The notes: generated by a model from the sequence alone, not told the origin. A stretch of 64,000 nt of DNA from an uncultured delta proteobacterium (GCA_963815115.1 CAWFFN010000009.1:832001-896000), one strand, 5' to 3'. Positions 2 through 23,106 are shown, counted from the first letter of the stretch. Numbers and translations: made by a program.

Positions 2-940
<939 letters not shown>

Positions 941-946
941 GCGGGA

Positions 947-1774
947 TCATTCGGGCTCCGACGGCCGATCCCTCCGGTTCCGCGCGGGGCGGCTGGCAGG
1001 CGGCGTCGCGTCGCCGGTTCCGGTTCCCACCTCGGCGAAGACCCGGAGTGCGATCACGATGCCGATGACGGTGCCGCCGTCGTCACGGATCAGCGTGCTC
1101 ACCTCCTCGACCGCCATTTGCCGGCCCTCGCGGGTCAGCAGCAGCCCCTCGGCCGTTCCCCCGCTGGCGATCATCTCCCCGCCGCGCAACGCCCGCGGTC
1201 TGCCGGGAATCGTCACTCGGAGCACGTCGGCCAGGTCGCGGCCCTCCGCCTCGGCGGCCTTCCAGCCCGTCAGCGTCTCGGCGGCCCGGCTCATGAAGCG
1301 GATGCGCCAGTCGCCATCCGTGGCGATCACCGACTCGCCGATGCTGCGCAGGGTGGCGGTGAGCCAGCGCTCGCTCTCCCGCAGGCGGCGCTCCATCTCG
1401 TGGCGGTAGAGGGCCATCTCGATGACGATGTGCAGCTCGCGCTCCTGGAAGGGCTTGAGCAGGTAGCCGTACGGTTCGGTGATGCGCGCCCGCTCCAGCG
1501 TCGCCGGATCGGCGTACGCGGTGAGATAGATGACCGGGATGTCGAAGGCCTGCCGGACGTGCTGCGCCGTCTCGACGCCGTCCATGTCGTCCCGCAGGTG
1601 GATGTCCATCAGGACGAGGTCGGGGCGGAGGGCGTCCGCACGTTCGATGGCGTCGCGGCCGCGCCCGACCGCGGCGGACACCGCGTAGCCCAGCCGCTGG
1701 AGCGTCGACCGGATGTCGAGCGCGACCGCGGCCTCGTCCTCGACGACGAGGATGCTCGCCGGGCCCTTCCTCAT
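947..1774 (-). CDS. Response regulator, REC plus PAS, with no DNA-binding output domain
   Basis: ATG at 1774 overlaps the kinase stop (ATGA); ILVVEDE...DLVLMDI...YLTAY...LLKPF receiver motifs, then PAS (IGESVIATD...AAETLTGW). Confidence 0.9.
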   Translation of the reverse strand: MRKGPASILVVEDEAAVALDIRSTLQRLGYAVSAAVGRGRDAIERADALRPDLVLMDIHLRDDMDGVETAQHVRQAFDIPVIYLTAYADPATLERARITEPYGYLLKPFQERELHIVIEMALYRHEMERRLRESERWLTATLRSIGESVIATDGDWRIRFMSRAAETLTGWKAAEAEGRDLADVLRVTIPGRPRALRGGEMIASGGTAEGLLLTREGRQMAVEEVSTLIRDDGGTVIGIVIALRVFAEVGTGTGDATPPASRPARNRRDRPSEPE

Positions 1775-3345
1775 GATCCGGCGAAGAGGATGCGGAACTC
1801 GGTTCCGCCCTCCGAGCGAAGCTCGATGGTCCCGCCGAGCTGCTCCGTCAACGCGCAGACGAGCTGCATCCCGAGCGTCTCGGTGGCGCGGAAGTCGACG
1901 TCGCGGGGAAACCCGACTCCGTCGTCGGCCACGCGCAGGAGATAGCCCCGTGCCTCGTCGGGTCGGACCTCGATCTCGATCTCGCCGCGGCGCCCGTCGG
2001 GGAACGCATGCTTGAGGCAGTTCGACACCAGCTCGTTGAGTGCAAGCCCGAGCGGCACCGCCGCGTCGATCCCGAGGGAGACGTCCTCGACGGCGGCCCT
2101 GATGCCGACCCCCTCCGCCCGCGTGTGGTAGGACCGGCACAGGAGATCGGTCAGGCTGCGGACGTATTCACCGAGGTCGACGCGCGACAGATCGGCCGAC
2201 TGGTAGAGGCGCTCGTGGACCAGGGCCATCGAATGGATGCGGTTGCAGCTCTCGGCGAACATCTCGAGCGCCCCGGGGTCGTGGACGTGGGTCGACTGCA
2301 ACCGCAGCAGGCTCGAGATGACCTGGAGGTTGTTCTTCACGCGGTGATGGATCTCCTCGAGGAGCACCTCCTTCTCGCGCAGCGACGTCTGGATCCGCTC
2401 CGCGCTGGCGCGCACCGCCTCCTCGGCGCGCTTCGACTCGGTGATGTCGTACGCGATCCCCTGGAGAAAGAGTGGATGCCCCTCGTCGTCCCGCACGACC
2501 CGCGCCTCGCCGCGCACCCAGACGACGTTGCCGTCGCGCGTGAGGGCACGGAATTCGGCGCGGAACGGACCGCCGGTCCGGCAGCCGCGCGCGAACTCGC
2601 GGTTGCAACGCTCGCGATCCTCCGGGTGGAGCTGGTTGAACCAGAGGAAGGGATTGCCCAGCCACTCCTCCTGGGTGAAGCCGAGCAGCGCCTCGATCTG
2701 GGGGCTGACGTACAGCTCGGTCACATCCTCGTTGAGCGCGGCCATGAAGGTGACGGCGGGGATCTGCTCGACCAGCGTGCGGTAGCGAGCCTCGACCTTG
2801 CGCCGCTGCTCCTCCGTCCGCTGCGCGCCGATGAGGCCGCGCACCGCGAGGATCTGCAGCTGCTCGCCGCCGAGCGCGACGCTGGCGGAGGTGGTTTCGA
2901 GGGGGAAGGTGGTGCCGCCGGCATGCTGCCCGACCACGTGGCGCGCGGCCGTCCGCGGGGCGCTCGTGGAGACGGCGTCGCGGTCGTCGGGCGGAAGCAG
3001 GATGGTCGCGATCGGCTTCCCGATCGCGTCTGCGGCGGAGTAGCCGAAGATCGCCTCCGCAGCCGCGTCCCACGAGTGGACGAAGCCGGCGCCGGTCACC
3101 GTGATGATCGCGGCTGCCCCGGCTTCGGCGCCCGCCCGAGGCCGGTCGCGGCCGGCGGGTATCCTCGTCCGGATTCCGGCCCCGATGATCGACGCATCGA
3201 CGGAAAACGCCCGCACCATCTCCTGCAGCACTGCCTCCGCCTCCTCGGGCGTCGAGGGTAGGGGATCGAGGACCGAGGAATCCGCCCCGCCGGCCGGGTC
3301 GTGACGTGTCGAGCGACGCGAGCCGTTGCGCGCCATGACGCTCAC
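1771..3345 (-). CDS. Soluble PAS-PAS sensor histidine kinase, HisKA_2 family
   Basis: GTG at 3345 overlaps the hydrogenase large-subunit stop (alternative ATG 3336); PAS motifs (WDAAAEAIFGY; YVSPQIEALLG...LHPEDR); H-box EIHHRVKNNLQ; NELVSNCLKHAF; DDGVGF; no TM segment. Confidence 0.92.
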   Translation of the reverse strand: MSVMARNGSRRSTRHDPAGGADSSVLDPLPSTPEEAEAVLQEMVRAFSVDASIIGAGIRTRIPAGRDRPRAGAEAGAAAIITVTGAGFVHSWDAAAEAIFGYSAADAIGKPIATILLPPDDRDAVSTSAPRTAARHVVGQHAGGTTFPLETTSASVALGGEQLQILAVRGLIGAQRTEEQRRKVEARYRTLVEQIPAVTFMAALNEDVTELYVSPQIEALLGFTQEEWLGNPFLWFNQLHPEDRERCNREFARGCRTGGPFRAEFRALTRDGNVVWVRGEARVVRDDEGHPLFLQGIAYDITESKRAEEAVRASAERIQTSLREKEVLLEEIHHRVKNNLQVISSLLRLQSTHVHDPGALEMFAESCNRIHSMALVHERLYQSADLSRVDLGEYVRSLTDLLCRSYHTRAEGVGIRAAVEDVSLGIDAAVPLGLALNELVSNCLKHAFPDGRRGEIEIEVRPDEARGYLLRVADDGVGFPRDVDFRATETLGMQLVCALTEQLGGTIELRSEGGTEFRILFAGS

Positions 3346-5108
3346 CCCGCCTGGGCTCCGAGCAGTGGCGAATGCACGGCGCGGACGGTGCGGCCGCCGC
3401 CCAGGTACATGTGGACGCCACAGGGGAGGCAGGGATCGAAGCTCCGCACCGTCCGCAGGATGTCGATGCCCTTGAAGGCGCTCGCGCCGTTCTCCTCGAA
3501 CAGCGGCGTGTTCTGCACCGCGTCCTCGAAGGGTCCTGGCGTGCCGTGCACGTCGCGCGGGCTCGCGTTCCACGTCGTCGGAGGGAAGGGGTGGTAGTTG
3601 GCGATCTTGCCGTCCCGGATCACGAGATGATGGGAGAGAAGGCCGCGCACGGCCTCGTGGAATCCGCAGCCGATGGCGTCGTCAGGGACCTCGAACGGGG
3701 TGGACGTCCGGGTCCGCCCGGCGTGCACCTCCTCGAGGGCGCGCTCGGCGAAGTAGAGAGCCGCCGCAGCCGCATACGCCTGGAAGTACGTCCGTGCGCG
3801 GTTGCGCTCGAGGGTGTTGCTCCAGGCCGGGATCTTCCACTCGAACGCGACCTCGGGGAGTGTCGCCGACTTGGGAAGGGTGATCGCTATGCTCCGACCC
3901 GTCGCCCGAACGTAGCCGATGTCGACGCGCCCGGCGAGCGCGGTCACCCACAGGCGCGCGAGCGGGCCGCCCCCGCTGTCGAGCGCGAGGAGCTGCTGGC
4001 TGGCGGGCTGCAGCCAGCGGGGCGAGGTGACCCACGTGTAGCGTCCCGCGAAATCGCGCTTCTGGGGTCGCGGGATGGTGCGCTGGTTCCACGGATGCCG
4101 CCGGTCGACCGGGTTGCCGAGCGGGTCTTCCTTCACCAGCGGCTCGGCCGTCTCCCAGTCGTCATAGTACGAGCTGCCGAGGAGGACGCGGATGCCGAGG
4201 TTGACCTCGACCAGATCGGTGGTGACGAGCTCGCCGTCGATGACGACGCCCGGCGTGACGTACATCTCCCGCCCCCACCGGCTCATGGTGCGGTAGTCAT
4301 AGTCGCAGGCCTCCGGATTCTGGAACGAGCCCCAGCAGCCGAGCAACGTGCGACGCTGGCCGACGGCTTCGTAGCCGGGGAGCGCCGCGTAGAAGAAGTC
4401 GAACAGGTCGTCGTGCAGCGGCACGACCTGCTTCATGAACTCGACGTACTGCATCAGGCGGCTCAGGTACTCGGTCAGGAGCTGCACGCTCGCCGTCGTG
4501 CCGATCCCTCCCGGGTAGAGCGTGGACGGATGCACGTGACGGCCGCCGATCAGGCAGTACATCTCCCGCGCCAGACGGCTCGTGCGCAACGCTTCCCGGT
4601 AGAACGCGCCGCTGAAGGGATTGAGCGCGCGCATGATGTCGCCGATCGTCCGGTAGCCGTGCTTGTCCGCGTTGGGGGCGGCGGTCTGGTTGGCCTTCTC
4701 GAGGACGCCCGGGTTCGTTTCCCCGACCATGCGCTCGCAGAAGTCCACCCCGACGAGGTTGTCCTGGAAGAGGTTGTGGTCGAACATGTACTCGGCGGCC
4801 TCGGCGAGGTTGATCAGCCAGTCGGCGAGCGGCGGCGGCTTCACCCCGAAGGTCATGTTCTGGGCGTAGAGCGCGCAGGTGGCGTGGTTGTCGCCGCAGA
4901 TGCCGCAGATGCGGCTGGTGATGAAGTGCGCGTCGCGCGGATCCTTCCCCTGCATGAAGATGCTGTAGCCGCGGAAGATCGACGACGTGCAGTGACACTC
5001 GGCCACCCGGCGATTGCCGAGGTCGATCCGCGTGTGCAGGCCGAGGCTGCCGACGACGCGCGTGATCGGATCCCACGACATCTCGATGAGCTCGGGTGTC
5101 GAGCTCAT
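3342..5108 (-). CDS. hhyL: Group 1h [NiFe]-hydrogenase large subunit, copy A (kinase-linked paralog)
   Basis: MSSTPELIEMSWDPITRVVGSLG; L1 TSRICGICGDNH; L2 SFDPCLPCGVH with C-terminal extension; ATG overlaps the small-subunit stop. Confidence 0.93.
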   Translation of the reverse strand: MSSTPELIEMSWDPITRVVGSLGLHTRIDLGNRRVAECHCTSSIFRGYSIFMQGKDPRDAHFITSRICGICGDNHATCALYAQNMTFGVKPPPLADWLINLAEAAEYMFDHNLFQDNLVGVDFCERMVGETNPGVLEKANQTAAPNADKHGYRTIGDIMRALNPFSGAFYREALRTSRLAREMYCLIGGRHVHPSTLYPGGIGTTASVQLLTEYLSRLMQYVEFMKQVVPLHDDLFDFFYAALPGYEAVGQRRTLLGCWGSFQNPEACDYDYRTMSRWGREMYVTPGVVIDGELVTTDLVEVNLGIRVLLGSSYYDDWETAEPLVKEDPLGNPVDRRHPWNQRTIPRPQKRDFAGRYTWVTSPRWLQPASQQLLALDSGGGPLARLWVTALAGRVDIGYVRATGRSIAITLPKSATLPEVAFEWKIPAWSNTLERNRARTYFQAYAAAAALYFAERALEEVHAGRTRTSTPFEVPDDAIGCGFHEAVRGLLSHHLVIRDGKIANYHPFPPTTWNASPRDVHGTPGPFEDAVQNTPLFEENGASAFKGIDILRTVRSFDPCLPCGVHMYLGGGRTVRAVHSPLLGAQAG

Positions 5109-6154
5109 TCGGGGTCTTCCCGCCGCCGACCCGGCCGCCGCCACTCCGGCTCGCGCTCCAGCGACGCGATGGTGAAGTTGCGCAGTGCACGTACGGCGCG
5201 GCCGTACATGAGCACGGCCGAGGACGACATCTTGGCGCCGGGCGGCTCGTCCATGAACGGCATGAACTTGTCGGGGAAGCCCGGCATGGTGCAGCCGATG
5301 CAGACGCCGCCGACGTTCGGGCAGCCACCCACGCCACCCATCCAGCCCCGCTTCGGCACGTTGCATCGCACCACCGGGCCCCAGCAGCCGAGCTTCACGA
5401 TGCACTTGGGCGTGCCGTAGTCGAGGCCGAAGTCGGCCTGCTCGTAGTAGCCGCCGCGGTCGCAGGCTTCGTGCACGGTCTGATCGAAGAGCCACCGTGG
5501 GCGCAGGCAGTCGTCGAGCGGGATCATGGGGGCGCGACCGACCGACTGCCGCAAGAGGTGGAGGAGGGTGTCCATGAAGTTGTCGGGCTGGACCGGGCAG
5601 CCGGGGACGCACACGATGGGGATGTCGCCGCGCGAGCGGAAGTCCCACCCGAGATAGTCCGGCAGCCCCATGCAGCCGGTCGGGTTGCCCGCCATGGCGT
5701 GAATGCCGCCGTACGTCGCGCAGGTACCGGCGGCGACGACGGCCCAGGCGCGCGGCGCCAGGCGGTCGATCCAGGTGCAGGTCAGGATGGGCTGGCCGCT
5801 CGACGGATCGGTGCCGAATCCTGCCCAGTAGCCCTCGTCCTTCCTCGTCTCGTCCGGGATCGAGCCCTCGACGACGAGGATGAAGGGTCCGAGCCTGCCC
5901 GTGGCGGCGCGCTCGAAGGGCTCGAGAAACCGGTCCCCGACTTCGTAGGCCAGCACGGGGTTGTGGAGCTCCACCTTCGGGATGCGGGGGATCGCTCCCA
6001 GGACGAGGTCCTCGAGGCTCGGGTTGGTGGCGGCCGTGATGGCGATCGTGTCGCCGTCACACCCGAGGCCGGCCGTGATCCACAGCACGTGGATCGTCTC
6101 CAGCGGGGCCGGCTCCACTTGCTCGCAGCCGTCGGGCGCTGACTCGTTGGTCAC
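5105..6154 (-). CDS. hhyS: Group 1h [NiFe]-hydrogenase small subunit, copy A
   Basis: GLGCDGD (Asp-ligated proximal cluster typical of group 1h), GTCATYGG, PGCP, HEACDR, CIVKLGCWGP, CPNVGGVCIGC; no Tat signal. Confidence 0.93.
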   Translation of the reverse strand: MTNESAPDGCEQVEPAPLETIHVLWITAGLGCDGDTIAITAATNPSLEDLVLGAIPRIPKVELHNPVLAYEVGDRFLEPFERAATGRLGPFILVVEGSIPDETRKDEGYWAGFGTDPSSGQPILTCTWIDRLAPRAWAVVAAGTCATYGGIHAMAGNPTGCMGLPDYLGWDFRSRGDIPIVCVPGCPVQPDNFMDTLLHLLRQSVGRAPMIPLDDCLRPRWLFDQTVHEACDRGGYYEQADFGLDYGTPKCIVKLGCWGPVVRCNVPKRGWMGGVGGCPNVGGVCIGCTMPGFPDKFMPFMDEPPGAKMSSSAVLMYGRAVRALRNFTIASLEREPEWRRPGRRREDPE

Positions 6155-6208
6155 GGCGTCGGACCTCGACCGGATCGCGAGCGACTCTGTAGCGCGGCGA
6201 CTCCCCCG

Positions 6209-6223
6209 TGGTCAAAGAGACCA
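6209..6223 (-). promoter_or_regulatory. Palindrome TGGTC-N5-GACCA overlapping a TTGACC -35-like hexamer upstream of hhyS copy A
   Basis: Inverted repeat read directly in the 134-bp intergenic gap; the -10 match (TACAGA, 18-nt spacer) is weak. Confidence 0.3.
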
Positions 6224-6288
6224 TCGCGGCGCTCGCCCGTCGCAGAGGCAATGTCGCGAGACGCTGCGCGACGCCATCGCCACCCTCG

Positions 6289-8576: not shown

Positions 8577-8873
8577 CCCCTGCAGGCGGTCGTGGCCCGG
8601 ATGGCGCCGCTGGTGTCGTGCTGTCGTGCGACGGCGCGCGACACGATCTTTTCCAATGAAAACGTCAAGTATCGGGGTGAGGCGTAGCTCTGCACCGTCG
8701 CAGGGCGACGCGACGATTCCTTCCACGGCTCCACGAAATACTGCAGATTCCGCATAGTCCGCTCGTGCTCCCTGCGGTACGGATAGTGCAGCGCGATCGA
8801 GCGCGACGCGGCGGATGACGGAAGCGGTCGGGATGGCCGTCGAGCGCCCTGCGCCGCGAAGGAGGCGACGAAC

Positions 8874-9911
8874 ATGCCGTCGGAAGAAGGACCGCTCGTC
8901 CACATCCTGTGGCTGAACTCGGGACTCGGTTGCGACGGGGATTCGGTCGCGCTCACCGCCGCGATGCAGCCCAGCATCGAGGACATCGTGCTGGGTGCCC
9001 TCCCGGGCCTGCCGCGCGTCGCGGTGCACTGGCTGCTCATCGACTACGAGGTCGGTGACGAGTTCATGCGCTGGTTCTGGAAGGCGGACCGGGGGGAGAT
9101 CGATCCCTTCGTGCTCGTCGTCGAAGGCTCGATCCCGAACGAGGCGATCAAGTCCGAGGGGTACTGGGCCGCGATGGGCAACCGCGTCGAAGGCGGTGGG
9201 CGCGACACCCAGCCCATGACCACCAGCGAGTGGCTGGATCGGCTCGCTCCGAAGGCGCTCGCCGTTCTCGCCGTCGGGACCTGCGCCACCTACGGCGGAA
9301 TCCATGCGATGTCCGGGAACCCGACCGGCGCCATGGGCGTGCCGGACCACCTGGGCTGGGGCTGGAAGTCGAAGGCCGGCATCCCGATCGTCTGCGTGCC
9401 CGGCTGCCCGATCCATCCCGACAATCTCGCCGAGACGATCCTCTATCTCCTCTACCAGGCGACCGGCGCGGCACCCATGATCCCGCTCGACGAACAGCTC
9501 CGGCCGACGTGGCTCTTCGGCGCCACCGTGCACGAGGGCTGCGACCGCGCCGGCTACTACGAGCAGGGCGAGTTCGCCACCGAGTACGGCACGCCCACGT
9601 GCATCGTGAAGCTCGGCTGCTACGGGCCCGTCGTCAAGTGCAACGTGCCGAAGCGGGGCTGGGTCGGCGGCGTCGGCGGTTGCCCGAACGTCGGTGGCAT
9701 CTGCATCGGGTGCACCATGCCGGGCTTCCCCGACAAGTTCATGCCGTTCATGGACGAGCCGCCCGGCGCCAAGGTGTCGACGCGGATGTCGGGGATGCTC
9801 GGCAGCGCGATCCGGACCCTCCGCGGCTTCACCGAGCACACGATGGACGAGGAGCCCAAGTGGCGCCGCCGTGGCTCGCAGCTCACCACCGGCTACCGGC
9901 CAACCTGGTAA
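8874..9911 (+). CDS. hhyS: Group 1h [NiFe]-hydrogenase small subunit, copy B
   Basis: GLGCDGD, GTCATYGG, PGCP, HEGCDR, CPNVGGICIGC, C-terminal QLTTGY; RBS ggagg; no Tat signal. Confidence 0.95.
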   Translation: MPSEEGPLVHILWLNSGLGCDGDSVALTAAMQPSIEDIVLGALPGLPRVAVHWLLIDYEVGDEFMRWFWKADRGEIDPFVLVVEGSIPNEAIKSEGYWAAMGNRVEGGGRDTQPMTTSEWLDRLAPKALAVLAVGTCATYGGIHAMSGNPTGAMGVPDHLGWGWKSKAGIPIVCVPGCPIHPDNLAETILYLLYQATGAAPMIPLDEQLRPTWLFGATVHEGCDRAGYYEQGEFATEYGTPTCIVKLGCYGPVVKCNVPKRGWVGGVGGCPNVGGICIGCTMPGFPDKFMPFMDEPPGAKVSTRMSGMLGSAIRTLRGFTEHTMDEEPKWRRRGSQLTTGYRPTW

Positions 9912-9928: not shown

Positions 9929-11716
9929 ATGACGACGGCAGTGAAGAAGTCCGACGGCCTGGTCGAGATGAACTGGGATCCGGTCACCCGGATCGTGGGC
10001 AGCCTCGGCATCTACACCAAGATCGACTTCTCGAAGAAGATCGTCGCGGAGTGCCACAGCACGTCGTCGATCTTCCGCGGGTACAGTATCTTCATGAAGG
10101 GGAAGGACCCGCGCGATTCCCATTTCATCACGAGTCGCATCTGCGGGATCTGCGGTGACAACCACGCCACCTGCTCCTGCTACTGCCAGAACATGGCCTA
10201 CGGCGTGAAGCCGCCGCATCTCGGCGAATGGATCGTCAATCTCGGCGAAGCAGCCGAGTACATGTTCGATCACAACATCTTCCAGGAGAACCTGGTCGCG
10301 GTCGACTTCTGCGAGCGCATGGTGAAGGAGACCAATCCGGGCGTGCTCGAGAAGGCGAACAAGAGCGCCGCGCCCAACGCGGACAAGCACGGCTACAAGA
10401 CGATCGGCGACATCATGCGCGCGGCGAATCCGCTCGAGGGCGAGTTCTACCGCGAGGCGCTGCAGGTGAGTCGCTGGACCCGGGAGATGTTCTGCCTGAT
10501 GGAGGGCCGGCACGTCCATCCGTCGACGCTCTATCCCGGCGGGGTCGGCACGGTCGCGACGGTGCAGCTCTTCACGGACTACCTGACGCGCCTGATGCGC
10601 TACGTCGAGTTCCTGAAGCGCTGCGTGCCGATGCACGACGACCTGTTCGACTTCTTCTACGAGGCGCTGCCGGGATACGAGGAAGTCGGCCGGCGCCGGA
10701 TCCTGCTCGGCTGCTGGGGTTCGTTCCAGGATCCCGAGGCGTGCAACTTCAAGTACGGCGACATGACCGACTGGGGCCGGAAGATGTTCGTCACGCCCGG
10801 CATAGTGGTCGACGGCAAGCTGGTCACCAACGATCTCGTCAAGATCAACCTCGGAATCCGCATCCTCCTCGGTCACTCCTACTACGAGGACTGGGAGGAC
10901 CAGGAGATGTTCGTCACCAAGGATCCCCTCGGGAACCCGGTCGACCGCCGCCATCCGTGGAACCAGCACACGATCCCGCGCCCGCAGAAACGCGACTTCG
11001 ACGGTAAGTACAGCTGGGTGATGGCACCGCGGTGGTTCGACGGCAAGGATCACCTCGCTCTCGACACGGGCGGCGGCCCCATCGCCCGCCTGTGGTCGAC
11101 GGCACTCTCGGAGCTCGTCGGCAGCAAGGACCGGCCGACCAACGGCTACGTCCAGGCGACCGGCAAGAGCGTCGTGATCAACCTGCCGAAGAGCGCGACC
11201 CGGGGGCCGGTCACGTTCGAGTGGAAGGTCCCGAAGTGGTCGAACACGATCGAGCGCGACCGCGCCCGCACCTACTTCCAGGCCTATTCCTGTGCCTGCG
11301 CGCTCTACTTCATCGAGCAGGCGCTCAAGGAGGTGCGTGCCGGGCACACCAAGACCTGGGAGCCCTTCAAGGTGCCGAGCGATGCCATCGGCTGCGGGTT
11401 CACCGAGGCGGTGCGCGGCGTCCTCTCGCACCACATGGTGATCCGGGGCGGCAAGATCGCCAACTATCACCCGTACCCGCCCACGCCGTGGAACGGGAAT
11501 CCGCGCGACATCTACGGCACGCCCGGCCCGTACGAGGACGCGGTCCAGAACACGCCGATCTTCGAGGAGAACGCTCCCGACAAGTTCAAGGGCATCGACA
11601 TCATGCGCTCCGTGCGCAGCTTCGATCCCTGCCTGCCGTGCGGCGTGCACATGTTCCTCGGCCACGGACGGGTCCTCGAGCGAATCCACTCACCATCGGC
11701 GTTGAACAATGCGTAG
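9929..11716 (+). CDS. hhyL: Group 1h [NiFe]-hydrogenase large subunit, copy B
   Basis: RBS ggagga then ATG 9929; WDPVTRIVGSLG, TSRICGICGDNH, YHPYPPTPWN, SFDPCLPCGVH. Confidence 0.95.
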   Translation: MTTAVKKSDGLVEMNWDPVTRIVGSLGIYTKIDFSKKIVAECHSTSSIFRGYSIFMKGKDPRDSHFITSRICGICGDNHATCSCYCQNMAYGVKPPHLGEWIVNLGEAAEYMFDHNIFQENLVAVDFCERMVKETNPGVLEKANKSAAPNADKHGYKTIGDIMRAANPLEGEFYREALQVSRWTREMFCLMEGRHVHPSTLYPGGVGTVATVQLFTDYLTRLMRYVEFLKRCVPMHDDLFDFFYEALPGYEEVGRRRILLGCWGSFQDPEACNFKYGDMTDWGRKMFVTPGIVVDGKLVTNDLVKINLGIRILLGHSYYEDWEDQEMFVTKDPLGNPVDRRHPWNQHTIPRPQKRDFDGKYSWVMAPRWFDGKDHLALDTGGGPIARLWSTALSELVGSKDRPTNGYVQATGKSVVINLPKSATRGPVTFEWKVPKWSNTIERDRARTYFQAYSCACALYFIEQALKEVRAGHTKTWEPFKVPSDAIGCGFTEAVRGVLSHHMVIRGGKIANYHPYPPTPWNGNPRDIYGTPGPYEDAVQNTPIFEENAPDKFKGIDIMRSVRSFDPCLPCGVHMFLGHGRVLERIHSPSALNNA

Positions 11717-12647
11717 CGCCGATCAGATGGGTTCGAAGCGCGTACAGCCCGTGGTGGGAGTGGCACCCGTAGCCCCGCGGCGAAATCTTCGCGAGACCGG
11801 TGGTCGTATCGAGCGCCTTCTCGAGGAAGTGCGCTCGATGGCGAGCCCTCCCGCCTGGGGACGGGTCGAGGAGCTCCTGCGAGTCGTCCTCGATCTCTAC
11901 ACCGGCGGCTTCGAGCGCATCCTCGCCATCGTGGGAGAGGAGAGGGACGAGGAAGGCTCGACCGCCGCGCCGCTGCTCAGGCGACTCGCCGATGATCGGC
12001 TGGTGGCGAGCCTGCTCGTCCTGCACGGGCTTCACCCCGACGATCTGGCGAGCCGCGTCCAGAAGGCGCTCCTCCGCGTCCGTCCCTATCTCGGCTCGCA
12101 CGGCGGCGACGTCGAGATCGTCGAGGCCGACACGCACAGCGGCGTCGTGCGGCTGCGGATGAGGGGGAGCTGCGACGGATGTCCGTCGTCGGCCATCACC
12201 GTGAAGCTCGCGGTCGAGGGGGCGATCAGGGAGCTCGCCCCCGAGGTCTCGAGGATCGAGGTGGAGGGAGTCACCGACGGTGCCCAGGATCCGGCGCCCG
12301 CCGGCAACGGGCACGGGCCGCTCGATTCCCGCTGGGTGAGGCTGGAAGCCGGCGTTCCGTCGGAGCCCGAGCGGCTCGCGGTCCGTGACGTCGCCGGCAC
12401 CCGGCTCGTTCTCTGCCGCGTCGAGCAAGGGCTCTATGCCTATCGCGACGCCTGTCCCGGATGTGGCTCCGCGCTCGGGAAAGGGCGGCTCGTCGGCGCG
12501 GTGCTCACCTGTGCCACCTGCGAGCGCCCCTACGACGTGCGCCACGCCGGGCGATCGCTGGCGAGCGAGGACCTGCACCTCGCGCCGGTACCGCTGCTCG
12601 AGCGCGAGACGGGCGTCGAGGTCGCGCTCGGGGGGACGGCGGCGTGA
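11709..12647 (+). CDS. NifU-like plus Rieske-like Fe-S protein (HhyE-type hydrogenase accessory)
   Basis: LLVLHGLHP, RPYLGSHGGDVE, GSCDGCPSS NifU motif, C-terminal CPGC...CATC. Confidence 0.85.
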   Translation: MRSADQMGSKRVQPVVGVAPVAPRRNLRETGGRIERLLEEVRSMASPPAWGRVEELLRVVLDLYTGGFERILAIVGEERDEEGSTAAPLLRRLADDRLVASLLVLHGLHPDDLASRVQKALLRVRPYLGSHGGDVEIVEADTHSGVVRLRMRGSCDGCPSSAITVKLAVEGAIRELAPEVSRIEVEGVTDGAQDPAPAGNGHGPLDSRWVRLEAGVPSEPERLAVRDVAGTRLVLCRVEQGLYAYRDACPGCGSALGKGRLVGAVLTCATCERPYDVRHAGRSLASEDLHLAPVPLLERETGVEVALGGTAA

Positions 12648-13324
12648 GCGAGGACGACAGCGGCCCGGAAGAGCACGGGGCGGCAGCGGCGCCGGTCGGC
12701 GTCCTGCGCGGTTTGCTCGACAAGCAGCGCAAGGCCGTTCCCGGAGAACGGTGCGAGATGTGCGCGACGCCGATTCCGGACGAGCATGCGCACGTCGTGA
12801 ATGTCGAGAGCCGCAACCTCCTCTGCGCCTGCCGGGCCTGCTACCTCCTCTTCACCGGCGCGGGCGCCGCCCAGGGCAAGTTCCGCGCCGTACCGGACCG
12901 TTTTCTCTACGCCCCGTCGTTCGCGTTCGGCGAGGCACAGTGGGACGCGCTCCAGATCCCCGTTCGCATCGCGTTCTTCTTCTTCAATTCGTCCCTCGGC
13001 CGGGTCGTCGCGTTCTATCCGAGCCCTGCCGGCGCCACCGAGTCGCTGCTGCCGCTCGAGGCGTGGCAGGAGCTCGGGCAGTCGAACCCGCTGCTCGGGA
13101 CCCTCGCGCCCGACGTGGAGGCGCTGCTCGTCTACGGACGGCGGGACCGGGAAGGCTTCGATTGCTTCATCGTCCCGATCGACGCCTGCTACGAGCTCAC
13201 CGGCGTCGTCCGCCTGCGCTGGAAGGGATTCGACGGCGGAGAGGAGGGGTGGCGGGAGATCGAGGGCTTCTTCGACCGGCTCCGGGCGAGGAGCCGTGAG
13301 GTTCCGGACGAGCGGTCGCGATGA
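12644..13324 (+). CDS. DUF5947-family hydrogenase accessory protein
   Basis: GTG overlaps upstream stop; ERCEMC...H.H...CACRAC, FYPSPAGATES, PIDACYEL, WKGFDGG. Confidence 0.85.
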   Translation: MSEDDSGPEEHGAAAAPVGVLRGLLDKQRKAVPGERCEMCATPIPDEHAHVVNVESRNLLCACRACYLLFTGAGAAQGKFRAVPDRFLYAPSFAFGEAQWDALQIPVRIAFFFFNSSLGRVVAFYPSPAGATESLLPLEAWQELGQSNPLLGTLAPDVEALLVYGRRDREGFDCFIVPIDACYELTGVVRLRWKGFDGGEEGWREIEGFFDRLRARSREVPDERSR

Positions 13325-13962
13325 GCGAGCTCGCCTTCGCGATCCTCGGCGCCCGCCCCGAGCCGTACGCGGCGGTTCCCACGATGGTGTTCCGCCTGCG
13401 CGTGGATGCGAGCGGCGGCGAGACCATCCACACGCTCGCGCTGCGCTGCCAGATCCGGATCGAGCCGCAGCGCCGCCGCTACGCCGCGGACGAGGAGGCG
13501 TCGCTCGAGGAGCTGTTCGGCACCGCCGCGCGCTGGGGCGACACGCTGAAGCCGTTCCTCTGGACCCATGTCTCCACCATGGCGCCCGGCTTCACCGGGA
13601 AGGGAGAGGTCGACCTCGCGGTGCCCTGTACCTACGACTTCGAGGTCGCCGCCGCGAAGTACCTGCACTCCCTCGAGGACGGCGAGATCCCGCTGGTCTT
13701 CCTCTTCAGCGGCACCGTCTTCGCGAAGGGCGAGGAGGGCTTGCGGGTGACGCAGGTGCCGTGGGATCGTGAGGCGCGTTACCGTCTGCCCGTCGCGACC
13801 TGGCGCGAGCTCATGGACCGCTACTATCCGAACGCCGGATGGCTCCGGCTACGCCGGGACACCCTCGACGCGCTGCTGAGCCTGAAGGCGCGGCGCGCGC
13901 TGGCCACCTTCGACGAGGTCATCGATGCGCTCCTCGCCGAGGCTGGGGAGCACGCGGCGTGA
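13321..13962 (+). CDS. DUF6084-family hydrogenase accessory protein
   Basis: LRCQIRIEPQRRRY, LFG...RWG.TL, PCTYDFEVAAAKY, LFSGTVF, VPWDREA. Confidence 0.85.
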   Translation: MSELAFAILGARPEPYAAVPTMVFRLRVDASGGETIHTLALRCQIRIEPQRRRYAADEEASLEELFGTAARWGDTLKPFLWTHVSTMAPGFTGKGEVDLAVPCTYDFEVAAAKYLHSLEDGEIPLVFLFSGTVFAKGEEGLRVTQVPWDREARYRLPVATWRELMDRYYPNAGWLRLRRDTLDALLSLKARRALATFDEVIDALLAEAGEHAA

Positions 13963-15315
13963 CGTTCGAGCACGCCCGGAAGATCGCCGACGCGGTGCTG
14001 TACGAAGGCTACGTCCTCTACCCGTATCGCGCCTCGGCGCGAAAGAACCGGTTGCGCTGGCAGTTCGGCGTGCTCGCGCCACGTAGCTGGTCCGAGGCAG
14101 GCGGGGGCGAGGCCTGGTGGATGCAGACCGCCTGCCTGGTCGAGCCCCGCGCGGAAGCGCGCCTCACCGGCAGGATCCGCTTCCTCCACGTCCTCGCGCG
14201 CACCGTGGAAGAGCTCTCGGATCCCGGCAGCGAGACCTTCCGGCCCGTCGACTCGCTCGACGTCGGCGGACGTCTCTGGACTTCATGGGAGGAGGGCGTC
14301 GAGCGCGAGGTCGACTTCGACGAGGCCTTGCCGCTCGAGGGCAGCGGCGCCGAGCGGCTCGTCCGCTTCTCCTTCCCCGACGATCGCCGGGTGGAGTCCA
14401 TCCGCGACGAGCAGGACCGGCTCGCCGGCCGCCTCGTGCGGACGCAGCGTCCGATCGCGGGCGCGATCCGCGTGTCGGTCGACCGCGTGGCGGGATCACG
14501 CCCGCTCCTCGCGGTGCGCGTCCGGGTCGAGAACCTCACCCCGATCGACACGCCGGGAGCGCCGCGGGAGCAGGCGCTCGGAGCGTTTCTCGTCGGGACC
14601 CACACGCTGCTCGCGGTCCAGGGCGGCGAGTTCGTGTCGTTGCTCGATCATGCGCCGTGGGCGGATGCCGCGGCCGCGGCGTGCGAGAACGTGCGGACGT
14701 GGCCCGTCCTCGTCGGGCCGGAGGGATCGCGCGACGTGATGCTCTCCTCGCCGATCATCCTGCAGGACCATCCCGAGATCGCGCCCGAGAGCGCGGGAGA
14801 TCTCTTCGACGCCACGGAGATCGACGAGATACTGACCTTGAGGACGATGACGCTCACGGAGGAGGAGAAGCGCGAAGCCCGCGCCACCGACCCGCGGGCG
14901 GCCGAGATCATCGATCGCGTCGAGACCATGCCCGCGGAGCTGCTCGAGCGCCTCCACGGCGCCGTCCGCTCGGTGCGCCCGGTGACCGCGCCGGCGGCGG
15001 AGACCGCCCCGTGGTGGGACCCCGGGGTCGACGCGTCGGTCTCGCCGGAGACGGACCGGATCGAGGTGGCGGGCGTCGCCGTGGCACGCGGAAGCCGCGT
15101 GCGGCTCTGTCCCGGCGCGCGGCGCTCGGACGCGCAGGACATGTTCCTCGCCGGCCGGGTGGCCCGGGTCGAGGGCGTCTTCCTCGACGTCGAGGACAAG
15201 CGCTATCTCGCGGTGACGCTCGAGGAGGATCCCGGCGGCCGAGCTGCACCAGTGGCACGGGCGATATCTGTACTTCGCCCCCGACGAGGTCGAGCCCCTG
15301 GAGTCGCGGCCATGA
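13959..15315 (+). CDS. Conserved group 1h cluster hypothetical protein, with a +1 frameshift near 15233
   Basis: ADAVLYEGYVLYPYR, SSPIILQDHPEIAPES.GDLFDATEIDEIL; expected tail DPAAELHQWHGRYLYFAPDEVEPL lies in the +1 frame and its TGA overlaps the next ATG. Confidence 0.8.
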
Positions 15316-15845
15316 GCCGCCGCGTCCTGGTGGCCGGGGTCGGGAACGTCTTCCTCGGGGACGACGGCTTCGGCGTCGAGGTCGCCAGGCGGCTGGCCGG
15401 GGACGCCTTCCCGCCGGGAGTCCAGGTGGCGGACTTCGGGATTCGCGGCGTCCACCTCGCCTACGAGCTGCTCCAGGGCTACGACACGCTGATCCTCGTC
15501 GATGCCGCTCCGCGCGGCGAGACGGCGGGGACGGTCTTCGTCCTCGAGCCCGACTTCGAGCATGCCGACAGCCTGGAGCGTGGCGCGAGCGGCTTCGTGC
15601 TCGATGCCCACGGCATGGATCCGGAGATGGTCCTCGGCATCCTCGCCGACCTGGGCGGCAAGCGGCCGCGGGTAGTGATAGTCGGTTGCGAGCCGGCGGA
15701 GGTGAGGGAGCACATGGGGTTGTCCGCGCCCGTTGCGCGCGCGGTCGACGACGCGGTACGGGTGGTGCGCGAGCTGGTCGAGCAGGAGTGCGGGCACGAG
15801 CCCGCCGGGCGTGAGACGACGAGCGAAACGGAGGTGGAAAAATGA
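15312..15845 (+). CDS. Hydrogenase maturation protease (HybD/HupD family)
   Basis: VLVAGVGNVFLGDDGFG, LILVDA, DAHGM, VGCEP. Confidence 0.9.
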   Translation: MSRRVLVAGVGNVFLGDDGFGVEVARRLAGDAFPPGVQVADFGIRGVHLAYELLQGYDTLILVDAAPRGETAGTVFVLEPDFEHADSLERGASGFVLDAHGMDPEMVLGILADLGGKRPRVVIVGCEPAEVREHMGLSAPVARAVDDAVRVVRELVEQECGHEPAGRETTSETEVEK

Positions 15846-15946: not shown

Positions 15947-16460
15947 ATGGCCCGATACCGCATCGTGCCGGAACGGTCGCGGATCGAGGCGGAGGCGCGC
16001 TCGAGCCTCCACCCGATCCGCGTCGAGACCGCCGGCCTCGAGGGCTACTTCGAGGCCGAGGTGGCCGGCGATCGCTTCGATCCATCGGTGGTGCCGAGCG
16101 GGCGCGTGGAGATCGACGCCGAGCGGTTGAAGACGGGCAACGGACTCTACGATCGCGAGCTCGAGCGCCGGCTCGAGACGCGGAAATACCCGCGTATCCG
16201 TGGCGAGGTCAGAGGGATGCGCGAGGTCGATTCCGGGCGCCGCTATGTCGTGCGCGGCGATCTCACCTTTCACGGGGTGACGCATCCCGTGGAGGGTGAA
16301 GTGGGGCTGCGGAGCCTGGACGAGCGGACCGTCGAGATCGAGGGCCAGCAGGTCATCGACATGCGGAACTTCGGGCTCGAGCCGCCGCGACTTCTGATGC
16401 TGAAGGTGGAGCCGGAGGTCCGGGTGCGCGGGTCGCGTGGTGGCCCAGCGCGAGGGGTGA
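15947..16460 (+). CDS. Cytoplasmic YceI-like lipid/polyisoprenoid-binding protein, with a +1 frameshift near 16431
   Basis: [43 protein letters not shown]; natural end RVVAQREG* in the +1 frame. Confidence 0.75.
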
Positions 16461-16465
16461 CGGCG

Positions 16466-16735
16466 ATGTGCCTCGGCATTCCCGGCGAGATCGTCGACGT
16501 CCGCCAGGACGACGGCCTCAGGGTCGGGCGCGTTCGCTTCGCGGGCATCACCCGGGACGTCTGCCTCGACTACGTGCCGGATGCCACGGTCGGGGAGTAC
16601 GTGCTCGTGCACGTCGGCTTCGCCATCTCGCGGATCGATCGCGAGGAGGCGGCGCGCGCCTACCGCGTGCTCGAGGAGATCGGGCAGACCGCGGAGCTGA
16701 CGGCGGACCGAGGGCCGCTGGACGAGCCGCCGTGA
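16466..16735 (+). CDS. hypC: Hydrogenase chaperone HypC (copy 1)
   Basis: MCLGIPG...[11 protein letters not shown]. Confidence 0.93.
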
Positions 16736-17850
16736 GGTACCTCGACGAGTACCGCGACGGCGACCTCGCCGCCGCCCTGTCACGTGAGATCGCCGCCACC
16801 GCGACGCGCCCGTGGGTGCTGATGGAGGTGTGCGGGGGACAGACGCACTCGATCGTCCGCTACGGCATCGACCGGATGCTGCCGCCCACCGTCGAGCTCG
16901 TGCACGGACCGGGCTGCCCGGTCTGCGTCACCTCGCTGGAGATGATCGACCGCGCCCACGCGATCGCGAGCCGCCCGGAGGTCGTCTTCACGTCGTTCGG
17001 GGACATGCTGCGCGTGCCGGGGTCACGCGGCGACCTCCTCACGCTGAGAAGCCGCGGCGCCGACGTGCGAGTCGTGTACTCTCCCCTCGACGCGTTGCGC
17101 ATCGCACGGGAGAACCCGCAGCGCGAGGTCGTCTTCTTCGGCATCGGCTTCGAGACCACGGCGCCCGCCAACGCGATGGCGGTCCATCAGGCGAAGCGCC
17201 TGGGCGTGCGCAACTTCTCGATGCTCGTGTCGCACGTGCTGGTACCGCCGGCGATCGCCGCCATCCTCCAGACGTCCGGCAACCGGGTGCAGGGCTTTCT
17301 CGGGCCGGGCCACGTCTGCGCCGTGATGGGCTACCGGGAGTACGAGGCCCTGGCCGCCAGCTATCGCGTACCGATCGTGGTCACGGGATTCGAGCCGGTG
17401 GACCTGCTCGAGGGCGTTCTCATGACCGTGCGCCAGCTCGAGGAGGAGCGGGCGGAGGTGGAGAACCAGTACGTGCGTGCGGTGTCCCGCGAAGGAAACC
17501 GCGCCGCGCGGGACGTCATCTTCGAGGTCTTCGAGATCGCCGACCGCAAGTGGCGCGGGGTGGGGGCGATCCCGAAGTCCGGCTACCGCATCCGCTACGA
17601 GTACCGGGAGCACGACGCCGAGAAACGCTTCGACGTGGACGCCATCGAGACCGAGGAGTCCTCGCGCTGCATCAGCGGTCTCATCCTGCGCGGCCTGCGC
17701 AAGCCGTCGGACTGCCCCGCCTTCGGCCGGGACTGCAACCCGCAGCATCCCCTCGGCGCCACCATGGTGTCCGCCGAGGGCGCCTGCGCGGCGTACTACC
17801 AGTACGGTCGCTACCTCGAGTCGGCGCGCGCGGAGGCAACGCGACCGTGA
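16732..17850 (+). CDS. hypD: Hydrogenase formation protein HypD
   Basis: [37 protein letters not shown]; GTG overlaps hypC stop. Confidence 0.95.
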
Positions 17851-18475
17851 GCGCGACGACACGCAGCGCAGCCCCGTCTCCATCACCGCCCGGGATGCAG
17901 GAGGCGATCCTCCGCAAGGCGCACGAGAGCGCCGGCACCACGGTCCGGTTCTTCGAGGAGAACGCCGAGGCGCTCGAGGGCTGCGCGCGGGCGCTCGCGG
18001 CCCGTCTGGAGGCGGCGGGCGCCTCTGGGTCATGGGCAACGGGGGCTCCGCCTGCGACGCGCAGCACCTCGCGGTCGAGTTCATGCACCCGATCATCGAG
18101 AAGCGCAGGGCGTTCGCCGCCCACGCGCTCACGGTGGACACCGCGACGCTCACGGCGATCGGCAACGACAGCGACTTCTCCCGCGTCTTCGCCGTGCAGC
18201 TCGAGCTGGTGGCGGGCCGGGGTGACGCGGCGCTCGGCATCTCGACCTCGGGCGCCTCGGCCAACGTGAGCCGGGCGCTCAAGCGCGCGCGGGAGCTCGG
18301 GCTGCTCACGATCGGCTTCGCCGGCCGCGACGGTGGGCGCCTGCCCGAGGTGTGCGACTGGTGCTTCACGGTCCGGTCGTGGTCGATCCACCGCATCCAG
18401 GAGGCCCACACGGCGCTCCTCCACGTGCTGTGGGACCTCGTGCACGTCGCGCTCGGGGAGGACGATGTCCTCTGA
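17847..18475 (+). CDS. SIS-domain phosphoheptose isomerase (GmhA-like), with a -1 frameshift near 18013
   Basis: N-terminus (RKAHES...FFEENA..L...A.AL) in one frame; [30 protein letters not shown] in another. Confidence 0.8.
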
Positions 18476-19520
18476 CGGGATGCCCTTCGCCGACTGCCCG
18501 CTTCCCGTCACGCGCGGCGAGGAGATCCTGCTCGCGCACGGGAGCGGCGGCAAGCTGACCGCGCAGCTGATCGAGCGGCTCTTCCTGCCCGCGTTTCGCA
18601 ATCCCCTGCTGGAGGCGCTCGACGATCAGGCCATCGTCGCCGTCAACGGCTCGCGGCTCGCCTTCACCACCGACTCCTACGTCGTCACGCCGATCTTCTT
18701 TCCCGGCGGCGACATCGGCGAGCTCGCGGTCAACGGGACGGTCAACGACCTGGCCGTGGGAGGCGCCGTCCCGCTCTGCCTCTCGCTGGCCTTCATCCTG
18801 GAGGAGGGGCTCCCGCTGGGGGACCTGCAGCGGGTGGTCGAGTCGGCCCGGCGCGCGGCCGAGGGGGCCGGCGTCCAGATCGTGACCGGCGACACCAAGG
18901 TCGTCGGGCGCGGCAGCGGCGACAAGATCTTCGTCAACACCTCGGGCATCGGCGTCGTGCGGCCGGGGGTCGATCTCTCCTCGCGCCACGTGCGCCCCGG
19001 GGACGCGATCCTGCTCTCGGGCGCGATCGGCGACCACGGGATCGCCATCCTCTCGACCCGCGAGGGGCTCGGCTTCGAGGGCGAGATCGCCAGCGACACG
19101 GCGGCGCTCCACGAGCTGGTCGCCACCATGCTGCGCGCCTGCCCTGGCATCCACGCCATGCGCGATCCGACGCGCGGCGGCCTGGCCGCGACGCTCATCG
19201 AGATCGCCGGTCGGCGGGGTCTCGGCATGGAGGTGGACGAGCGCGCGGTCCCGGTGCGCGACGTCGTGCGTGGCGCCTGCGAGATGCTCGGCCTCGACCC
19301 GCTGCTGGTCGCCAACGAGGGCAAGCTCGTGGCCTTCGCCGCCGAGGAGGACAGCGAGCGCATCCTCGCGGCGATGCGCGCGCACCCGCTCGGACGGGGC
19401 GCCGTCCGCATCGGTCGCGTGGTCGACGACCACCCCGGCCTGGTCCTGCTGCGCACGCCGATCGGGGGCGACCGGGTGCTGGACCTTCCCTTCGGCGAAG
19501 CGTTGCCGAGAATCTGCTGA
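18465..19520 (+). CDS. hypE: Hydrogenase carbamoyl dehydratase HypE
   Basis: LAHGSGG, FTTDSYVV, GTVNDLA, GDTKVV, RDPTRGG, C-terminal LPRIC. Confidence 0.95.
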   Translation: MSSDGMPFADCPLPVTRGEEILLAHGSGGKLTAQLIERLFLPAFRNPLLEALDDQAIVAVNGSRLAFTTDSYVVTPIFFPGGDIGELAVNGTVNDLAVGGAVPLCLSLAFILEEGLPLGDLQRVVESARRAAEGAGVQIVTGDTKVVGRGSGDKIFVNTSGIGVVRPGVDLSSRHVRPGDAILLSGAIGDHGIAILSTREGLGFEGEIASDTAALHELVATMLRACPGIHAMRDPTRGGLAATLIEIAGRRGLGMEVDERAVPVRDVVRGACEMLGLDPLLVANEGKLVAFAAEEDSERILAAMRAHPLGRGAVRIGRVVDDHPGLVLLRTPIGGDRVLDLPFGEALPRIC

Positions 19521-19534
19521 GGAGGGGCCGGACC

Positions 19535-20073: not shown

Positions 20074-20078
20074 GGCGG

Positions 20079-22397: not shown

Positions 22398-22411
22398 GGA
22401 GGTCCTCGAAC

Positions 22412-23105: not shown

Positions 23106-23106
23106 C

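Follow-up and report, generated by a model that had tools for sequence, protein, structure and literature searches.

The stretch of DNA analyzed here, hereafter the window, comprises 64,000 nucleotides from the genome of an uncultured delta proteobacterium (GCA_963815115.1 CAWFFN010000009.1:832001-896000), and carries near one end, between positions 947 and 6154 of the minus strand, four genes that combine a [NiFe] hydrogenase of group 1h with a two-component signaling system. They encode the small (S) and large (L) subunits of the hydrogenase (hhyS-A and hhyL-A, together copy A), a PAS histidine kinase, and a response regulator composed of a receiver (REC) and a PAS domain. A second 1h hydrogenase (hhyS-B and hhyL-B, copy B), accompanied by a full set of accessory and hyp maturation genes, starts at position 8874, 2.72 kb from the end of the A operon at position 6154, where the initial annotation of the window had placed a conventional 1h operon at about 2.7 kb. 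All features are listed in Table 1.

Organization of the A operon

A gene caller relying on codon usage and trained on the window reproduced the four minus-strand genes of the initial annotation at identical coordinates, and readout of the junctions bore out its description of 4-nt start/stop overlaps: ATGA at 5108-5105 between hhyS-A and hhyL-A, GTGA at 3345-3342 between hhyL-A and the kinase gene, and ATGA at 1774-1771 between the kinase and regulator genes. An alternative ATG start of the kinase lies 9 nt downstream of the GTG, and the genes are tightly packed with either start. The regulator is the final gene of the operon, and the next gene (2-940, plus strand) is convergent with it.

Pfam searches identified Oxidored_q6 and NiFe_hyd_SSU_C in HhyS-A, NiFeSe_Hases in HhyL-A, PAS in two stretches, PAS_3 (residues 211-298), HisKA_2 (331-406) and HATPase_c in the kinase, and Response_reg (8-118) and PAS (141-244) in the regulator. 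HisKA_2 (101.7 bits, cut-off 22.3), HATPase_c (46.8, cut-off 26.4) and Response_reg (76.4, cut-off 30.2) identify the last two genes as a two-component system, and the kinase retains the HHRVKN H-box, the N-box and the G-boxes. The L1 motif TSRICGICGDNH and the L2 motif SFDPCLPCGVH of HhyL-A, as well as the proximal-cluster motif GLGCDGD of HhyS-A, are all present as the initial annotation had described them, and HhyL-A extends for 22 residues past His566 at its C-terminus. The annotation was also right in that the kinase has no transmembrane segment: every 19-residue window of the kinase and of the regulator scores at most 1.6 on the Kyte-Doolittle scale, leaving no stretch fit for a membrane helix. 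The RRxF motif of twin-arginine translocation (Tat) signals is absent from both HhyS-A and HhyS-B.

Copy A has no maturation genes of its own, again in line with the initial annotation. The hyp set at 15947-23916 is the sole one near either copy, and the accessory genes for the NifU-domain, DUF5947 and DUF6084 proteins follow copy B but not copy A, arranged in the order known from the pHG1 AH operon of C. necator. A scan for sigma-70 signals between positions 700 and 9000 yielded no promoters and two terminator matches, which is within chance. None of five proteins searched against NCBIfam reached a curated cut-off. A search of sequencing runs for the locus returned no RNA run; the best DNA run contained 0.28 of its words, and the others at most 0.13.

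Phylogenetic placement within group 1h

Sequence comparison identifies copy A as a genuine group 1h paralog, as had been proposed. The best match in the PDB is 5AA5 for both copies, with 1069.5 bits (A) and 1061.2 bits (B) for the large subunits and 552 and 552.5 bits, respectively, for the small ones, and the 1h L1 and L2 motifs, as quoted in PMC10080006, are both present in HhyL-A and HhyL-B. The two copies are 72% identical in L and 64% in S, and are the only [NiFe] large subunits detectable with the query used in the 6.9-Mb genome, assembled in 12 contigs.

In a large-subunit tree of 78 rows, rooted with three non-1h proteins (P0012, P0015 and P0020), all 75 1h rows form one clade with support 100, to the exclusion of the outgroups. 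The kinase-linked large subunits, HhyL-A among them, constitute a single 14-row clade (Shimodaira-Hasegawa-like approximate likelihood ratio test support 99) nested in 1h beside HofG and Methylocystis; it comprises eight members from S-L-kinase loci, five with accessory genes between hydrogenase and kinase, and that of L118, whose gene lies beside a small subunit-kinase pair in divergent orientation. HhyL-B belongs to a separate 18-row clade together with the Kitasatospora enzyme, and branches of the A type are longer (0.21-0.24 versus 0.07 for B). A tree restricted to Binatia, the class to which the window's genome belongs, contains a 9-row clade in which all nine members are kinase-linked. 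A search of representatives at 50% identity, in which all 1h proteins collapse into P0006, provided only outgroups; it also contained P0009, an 802-aa large-subunit relative with 54% identity and a 247-residue N-terminal extension. Two genomes, G744 (L085) and G796 (L100), contribute rows to the trees and to the L alignment only, and are not used for any count or conclusion; the PAS match 5' of L in L100 is left out of the counts as well, and G830 was excluded.

The small subunits divide even more sharply by gene context. Among 146 sequences from the window, Binatia loci and 80 metagenome loci, one branch with support 99 separates 70 canonical small subunits from 76 others, including HhyS-A. 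On the canonical side, 66 are followed by L, four lie at contig ends, and none is linked to a kinase. On the other side, 72 of 76 are kinase-linked: 61 are directly followed by a PAS kinase gene, seven are in S-L-kinase and four in S-L-accessory-kinase order, the rest being two at contig ends and two exceptions (L102, and L115, in which the contig ends inside L). When references were added in IQ-TREE, HofK and the Methylocystis and Kitasatospora proteins fell on the canonical side (61 rows, support 95). In none of 500 shuffles of the labels did their clustering on the trees come out as low as observed. We also tried to root the small-subunit tree with HupU of group 2b, which left the root unsettled, the outgroup branch having a length of 10.

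Hallmarks of the kinase-linked subunits

The Cys/His ligand columns of the three Fe-S clusters are 100% conserved in kinase-linked and canonical small subunits alike, and all of them are present in HhyS-A. In the proximal motif GxCDGD of 66 kinase-linked small subunits (hereafter S'), C32, D33 and G34 are invariant and D35 is conserved in at least 90%; over the entire length, mean column identity of these 66 sequences is 77%, so that S' is as conserved as canonical S. Position 126 is Cys in 99% of rows on the kinase-linked side, compared with Asn in 63% of canonical rows, and HhyS-A possesses this Cys. Of the five columns that discriminate most sharply, two lie next to distal or medial ligands (CDRGG versus CDRAG, and CNVGK versus CNVPK); HhyS-A carries the first of these changes and not the second.

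The most conspicuous difference lies at the C-terminus, which in canonical small subunits reads ...EPKWRH..ELTTGYxPxxY. By a criterion derived from our own alignment rather than from a published 1h definition, the L-x-TGY tail is present in 62/70 canonical rows versus 4/76 on the other side; the remaining eight canonical rows have the near-variants ITTGY, LTSGY, LTTGF and LTTGS, and TTGY is found in all three characterized references. Tails of kinase-linked small subunits are short and variable, and HhyS-A ends in ...EPEWRRPGRRREDPE, without the TTGY tail. Such a loss would fit release of the small subunit from its usual partner.

It may be added that the label given to 1h small subunits by NCBI is "hydrogenase expression protein HypE", in plasmid records (L185, L186, L188) as well as in cluster names. 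Since, in addition, no NCBIfam model scores over its cut-off for either subunit, both canonical and kinase-linked small subunits are missed by keyword searches.

Recurrence of the hydrogenase-kinase linkage

We scanned one genome per species with the kinase as query, retaining the best 80 of 481 confirmed loci. With tblastn, the direct S-L-kinase-regulator order was found in five other Binatia genomes (L001-L005), that is, in the class of the window's genome, each with a nearby canonical copy as well, and also in metagenome loci L116, L127 and L142. The linkage is thus not confined to a single assembly. In L003 (5243-6902 on G402:C26), the large subunit of the A type, which adjoins the kinase, is interrupted and appears as two overlapping matches; the small subunit likewise falls into two segments. 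L004 and L005 contain a second pair of genes, for a PAS-HisKA_3 kinase and a REC-GerE regulator, directly upstream of hhyS-A (L004:1756-4031, L005:1861-4142), and their downstream "regulator" is a 499-aa REC-PAS-HATPase protein.

A sample of the phylum around the window's genome contained a 1h large subunit in only 3/401 genomes, and sampling was therefore re-centered on the class, where 24 of 400 genomes have one (E <=1e-100). Layouts were examined in 21 of these 24, leaving out G704, G766 and G794. The order seen in the window occurs in G401, G403 and G499. In a second layout (type II: G408, G415, G509), the kinase and regulator genes terminate a complete operon, hypFCDE-S-L-accessory-protease-hypAB-kinase-regulator, and the "regulator" is an 887-aa REC-PAS-GAF-GAF-HisKA-HATPase protein (L190). 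The signaling genes of type II and of L004/L005 look like layered phosphorelays. In a third layout (type III: G684, G740), an orphan small subunit is followed by a PAS kinase, and in G695, G711, G731 and G757 hhySL has beside it only an activator together with a PAS or REC-PAS gene. The type III locus of G684 (L090) places the kinase gene between the only S found at the locus and the only L found in the genome, the large subunit having been searched genome-wide and the small subunit within the fetched locus; in such an arrangement, S' must be able to pair with L.

The form common in metagenomes duplicates the small subunit only: S' is followed by a PAS_3-(PAS)-HisKA_3 kinase, a REC-GerE (LuxR-type) regulator, and then S, L and accessory genes. 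Where an S'-PAS locus offers 4.5 kb or more of downstream sequence (41 loci), a second small subunit lies 2.25-3.8 kb downstream on the same strand in 36 cases. A sample of 401 Acidobacteriota genomes (the phylum of G804), chosen without regard to likeness to HhyS-A, included 17 with a 1h small subunit at >=61% identity. Of the 16 examined (G1072 was left out), 11 contain a PAS_3 kinase either next to S' or 5' of S-L. The remaining five contain only one S, and the upstream sequence retrieved for them (2.4-2.7 kb) yielded no match to PAS_3. In two Acidobacteriota genomes, G943 and G1168 (L199, L200 and L201), the parts are uncoupled. In G943, with a PAS_3 kinase upstream of S-L, no small subunit was seen in the fetched upstream region; in G1168, an orphan tail-less small subunit lies beside a copper amine oxidase gene without a kinase (L200, C10), and a PAS_3 kinase lies upstream of S-L at another place.

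Protein clusters matching HhyS-A at E <=1e-100 number 6466; among the best 120 of these, the TTGY tail is absent in 89 of the 106 with a readable tail. Source names of HhyS-A-like clusters include Rokuibacteriota, Terriglobales, Planctomycetes and Gemmataceae. The arrangement in the window, which could have been taken for a lone invention of this genome, is instead one architectural variant of a widespread module, found at 1h loci of Binatia, of Acidobacteriota and in metagenomes, and composed of a kinase-linked S lineage with or without its own L, a PAS_3 kinase and a regulator. Its hosts are Binatia and Acidobacteriota genomes, and homologue names point also to Rokubacteria and Planctomycetota.

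The PAS_3 domain of the kinase

Comparison of ten kinases, from loci of the S-L-kinase order or of type II, shows an N-terminal PAS domain that may be present or absent and a nearly invariant PAS_3. Median identity to the PAS_3 domain of the window is 52% in 69 hydrogenase-linked domains versus 29% in 32 unlinked relatives drawn from kinase scan loci L007-L080, and about 30 positions are conserved at >=85% in the linked set only. The kinase core varies: HisKA_2 is found in the window, L116 and L140, HisKA_3 in L089, L114, L123, L153 and L209, and HisKA in L090 and L127. With PAS_3 constant while the core changes, it is this domain that appears as the constant companion of the small subunit. 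We considered Cys266 of PAS_3 as a further hallmark and rejected it: it is invariant in the ten S-L-kinase-type kinases, but is not among the positions conserved at >=80% in the full linked set. Prediction of a complex between HhyS-A (residues 20-341), HhyL-A (8-566) and PAS_3 (185-303) gave a value of 0.09 against a mark of 0.32, which, in a run without controls, speaks neither for nor against an interaction.

The sigma-54 activator and promoters

The gene convergent with the regulator encodes a sigma-54 activator (Sigma54_activat, 165.8 bits; HTH_8, 42.9 bits), which has no receiver or other N-terminal domain and possesses a GSFTGA loop of the GAFTGA type, the Walker A motif GESGTGKE and the Walker B motif LFLDEL; rpoN was found in the same genome. 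The same receiver-less activator adjoins a REC-PAS or PAS-only gene in seven Binatia loci (the window, L001, L084, L093, L094, L095 and L099).

When the 320 nt preceding canonical hhyS were searched for -24/-12 boxes, 8/14 related loci had one with a score of at least 19 (e.g., TGGCACTCCCATTGCT in L094), the chance of such a score, estimated from the window's own sequence, being 0.008 per 320 nt. In six loci, the region preceding hhyS-A contained no sigma-54 box with a score of 18 or above. With boxes at the canonical copies and none at hhyS-A, the canonical operon in Binatia looks sigma-54-dependent and the A operon does not, the promoter evidence being weak for the window itself. When the regions 5' of hhyS-B from the window, L001 and L084 were aligned, a conserved block was absent, so that the weak candidate box of the window could not be confirmed by position.

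The initial annotation had suggested that copy A perhaps controls copy B. Such control remains plausible, given the neighboring activator gene and the boxes in related loci, but it would not be exerted by the regulator directly: the latter has no DNA-binding domain, and any control of copy B would have to pass through another protein.

Copy B and other features of the window

Two open reading frames (ORFs) downstream of copy B join what are separate genes in related loci: a single 628-aa ORF at 13959-15845 combines a 1h accessory protein of about 450 aa with a HycI-type protease, and a protein of about 170 aa reads in frame into HypC (MCLGIPGE...) at 15947-16735. The space between the two hydrogenase copies (6289-8576) is occupied by genes for a CitE/HpcH-type lyase and a family III CoA-transferase; a CitE/HpcH-type lyase gene also adjoins the A operon, on the opposite strand, in L084. 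The best sigma-54 box of the window, TGGCACCTGGCTTGCT (27738-27753, minus strand; score 21 of 21.5), lies upstream of a 122-aa gene (27346-27714) and of the gene for an 879-aa protein (24704-27343), whose sequence suggests a fusion of cyclase and Ser-Thr kinase that includes a membrane segment.

Table 1. Features of the hydrogenase region, in coordinates of the window.
Feature	Position	Strand	Length, evidence or remarks
Sigma-54 activator, AAA+ and HTH_8, without receiver domain	2..940	+	Begins 23 nt before the window; full 320-aa gene at L103:11978-12940
Response regulator, REC-PAS, without DNA-binding output domain	947..1774	-	275 aa; Pfam
Soluble sensor histidine kinase: variable N-terminal PAS, PAS_3, HisKA_2, HATPase_c	1771..3345	-	524 aa; Pfam
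PAS_3 domain of the kinase (residues 176-310), hydrogenase-linked PAS_3 subfamily	2416..2820	-	Sequence comparison, profile search
hhyL-A, group 1h large subunit	3342..5108	-	588 aa; Pfam, 1069.5 bits to 5AA5 HofG
hhyS-A, group 1h small subunit, kinase-linked lineage	5105..6154	-	349 aa; Pfam, 552 bits to 5AA5 HofK
Intergenic region 5' of hhyS-A	6155..6288	-	No sigma-54 box >=18 and no sigma-70 consensus found
Weak candidate -24/-12 box, CGGTACGGATAGTGCA	8775..8790	+	99 nt upstream of hhyS-B; score 17.5
hhyS-B, canonical 1h small subunit, tail ...LTTGYRPTW	8874..9911	+	Sequence comparison, trees
hhyL-B, canonical 1h large subunit	9929..11716	+	Sequence comparison, trees
Copy B accessory genes: NifU-domain protein, DUF5947, DUF6084, unknown protein fused to HycI-type protease	11829..15845	+	
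hyp maturation genes (hypC, D, E, F, A, B and others)	15947..23916	+	Named by similarity across loci

Proposed function and alternative explanations

The reading that we favor by a modest margin over its denial, on genomic grounds, is that copy A serves as a sensor of H2 or redox state, derived from group 1h and signaling by way of the kinase. HhyS-A and HhyL-A would constitute a cytosolic enzyme of 1h descent that serves mainly to signal to the soluble kinase translated along with it, and not to supply electrons for respiration. Activation of H2 by HhyL-A would reduce the three Fe-S clusters of HhyS-A, which, having lost the canonical TTGY tail, would couple to the specialized PAS_3 domain; the redox or occupancy state would alter autophosphorylation at HisKA_2, and the phosphate would be transferred to the REC-PAS regulator. 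This regulator would act via a partner, most plausibly the receiver-less sigma-54 activator, on transcription of hhySL-B and the hyp genes, and in most relatives the output would be a LuxR-type regulator controlling the neighboring uptake operon. A broader proposition, which we put forward with some reserve and consider somewhat less probable than its opposite, is that group 1h spawned H2-sensing regulatory hydrogenases of its own, in which a tail-less S docks to a dedicated PAS_3 kinase, with a shared L in most soil bacteria and a private L here, providing a direct switch for atmospheric-H2 oxidation in Binatia and Acidobacteriota and, judging by names, in Rokubacteria and Planctomycetota.

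Several observations weigh against a sensory role or limit its scope. HhyL-A differs from canonical L at only three conserved positions (one G-to-A and two I-to-L); with changes this conservative and the C-terminal extension kept, the large subunit bears no sequence mark of a sensor. In L087/L088, L006, L083 and L106, the kinase-linked S/L pair shares an operon with hyp and accessory genes of its own; the kinase-linked L is the only large subunit found in G408 (L087) and G405 (L006), and the sole hydrogenase is of the kinase-linked type in type II loci, where it has a separate set of maturation genes, as well as in L090 and G907. In loci of the G408/G405 kind it is probably a working uptake enzyme, and the lineage is therefore not sensor-only and can also be catalytic. 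The expectation that kinase-linked copies form a clade co-occurring with a canonical copy accordingly holds in part: their large subunits are one clade, and a canonical copy lies near each of L001-L005, but in some genomes the kinase-linked enzyme stands by itself. The kinase-linked small subunits may be either a clade or a grade, as the root of their tree is not fixed, and the metagenome loci, all 80 of which were chosen by likeness to HhyS-A, do not represent a random sample in their proportions. The A-type large subunit of L003 contains four TGA and one TAA codons in frame, due either to decay or to long-read errors. A profile search of the PDB with PAS_3 returned no relative with a known cofactor, the best being the uncharacterized PAS/PAC structures 3H9W and 3MR0, and HIF, AhR and FixL matching at weak scores. 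The signal may be general redox state rather than H2. At the output end, the regulator has no output domain and is connected to the sigma-54 activator by adjacency alone, and the candidate box of the window, at 17.5, has a chance of 0.11 per 320 nt.

Alternatively, copy A may be an ordinary catalytic isoenzyme, adapted to another condition or acceptor, with the two-component system sensing O2, redox or energy state and the hydrogenase being its target rather than the sensor. The type II layout, in which kinase and regulator terminate a complete hydrogenase operon, agrees with this explanation, and we take the regulatory genes at the end of the C. necator hydrogenase operon to be a similar arrangement; so do the near-identity of HhyL-A to canonical L at conserved positions, the retained maturation extension, and the kinase-linked type of the sole hydrogenases of G408 and G405. 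An isoenzyme, however, would leave unexplained why an orphan S' is the most constant neighbor of the kinase (61/146 small subunits), why its C-terminal tail is lost, why a dedicated PAS_3 subfamily is kept through changes of the kinase core, and why enzyme and kinase genes are translationally coupled by 4-nt overlaps, and we regard this explanation as rather unlikely, if the most serious of those considered. The orphan S' could alternatively mean that the kinase-linked small subunit acts alone, as an Fe-S sensor of redox state or O2 or as a checkpoint of hydrogenase assembly, HhyL-A being a leftover or a scaffold. Most loci have no large-subunit gene for S' (the 61 S'-PAS cases), S' keeps all three clusters and has gained one Cys, and an orphan S' without a neighboring kinase exists in G1168 (L200). 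Yet S' is conserved like canonical S throughout, which by inference includes the segments facing L; in L090 it is the only S found at the locus of the genome's only L; and in the window's lineage a dedicated L with intact Ni-Fe ligands is kept across five genomes at 76-78% identity, all of which makes an action of S' by itself improbable. As for adjacency by chance or through an assembly artefact, PAS kinases are very common and single adjacencies occur, and nothing else was found in its favor; the arrangement recurs in independent assemblies and in metagenomes and tracks the phylogeny (0/500 shuffles), and this explanation is extremely unlikely.

Comparison with known systems

The soil sink for atmospheric H2 is based on hydrogenases of group 1h, and to our knowledge the group has been regarded only as a respiratory scavenger of trace H2. 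A search of full-text literature, with supplements and subscription journals outside its scope, yielded no description of a 1h-kinase arrangement, in agreement with the initial annotation, which knew of none; the combination of "group 1h", "PAS domain" and "hydrogenase" returned no papers. In the available portions of PMC12319191, bioRxiv 10.64898/2026.02.17.706317, PMC5037454, PMC13098282 and PMC10080006, linkage to kinases or other signaling proteins is given only for group 2b, putative group 2c and [FeFe] group C. How atmospheric-H2 oxidation is sensed and regulated is openly stated as a gap in PMC13098282. The module described here, found at 1h loci of Binatia and of 11 of 16 examined Acidobacteriota carriers, would be a concrete and testable candidate for such regulation. 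Its common form, which duplicates the small subunit only, suggests that one catalytic subunit may be shared by an energy-conserving and a signaling partner.

Copy A resembles canonical 1h enzymes, represented by C. necator HofKG (5AA5), in its motifs, in the absence of a Tat signal and in its position in the clade, and differs from them in that the NifU, DUF5947 and DUF6084 genes and the TTGY tail of HofK and of the Methylocystis and Kitasatospora proteins are absent, and that a kinase and a regulator follow. The two-component genes recall the HisKA_2/HWE kinases with PhyR-type receivers of general stress signaling: PhyK and PhyR are the best NCBIfam matches of the kinase core (135.5 bits) and of the receiver (93.1 bits), although these scores fall far short of the curated cut-offs (750 and 240 bits) and the regulator contains PAS rather than a sigma-like domain. 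Known examples of sigma-54 activators that lack a regulatory domain and are controlled in trans are PspF with PspA and HrpR/S with HrpV. The 320-aa activator of the window, consisting of AAA+ and HTH only and having PspF among its NCBIfam matches, would likewise need a partner protein; unlike in those systems, the REC-PAS partner is proposed from adjacency in seven loci only.

As in group 2c (diguanylate cyclase-linked) and [FeFe] groups C1-C3, which the HydDB table lists as putatively sensory on the basis of linked signaling genes (PMC5037454), a sensory role of copy A is proposed from linkage to signaling proteins; those belong to other lineages, however, none of them 1h, and have no orphan small subunit. 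The closest functional parallel is provided by group 2b, designated "histidine kinase-linked, H2 sensing" in HydDB (PMC5037454). Like C. necator HoxBC-HoxJ-HoxA and Rhodobacter HupUV-HupT-HupR, copy A is a cytosolic enzyme with three Fe-S clusters and an adjacent soluble PAS kinase, and in both cases signaling would end at transcription of an uptake hydrogenase, dependent on sigma-54 or on a regulator, which for copy A is proposed from the genes alone. It does not belong to the 2b lineage: HhyS-A is 33-35% identical to plasmid HupU versus 64-68% to 1h small subunits, and HupU is separated from all 1h small-subunit rows by a branch of length 10. Further differences are that HhyL-A keeps its 22-residue C-terminal extension; that the kinase core is HisKA_2 instead of the HisKA of 2b; that the REC-PAS receiver and the AAA+/HTH activator are encoded by separate convergent genes rather than by one NtrC-type protein; and that most relatives of copy A duplicate the small subunit only and use LuxR-type regulators. 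HoxC of group 2b has no C-terminal extension. By analogy, the balance tips slightly toward a module that works like HoxBC-HoxJ-HoxA and has a separate origin inside group 1h, which, if true, would mean that hydrogenase-kinase sensing arose a second time, independently of group 2b.

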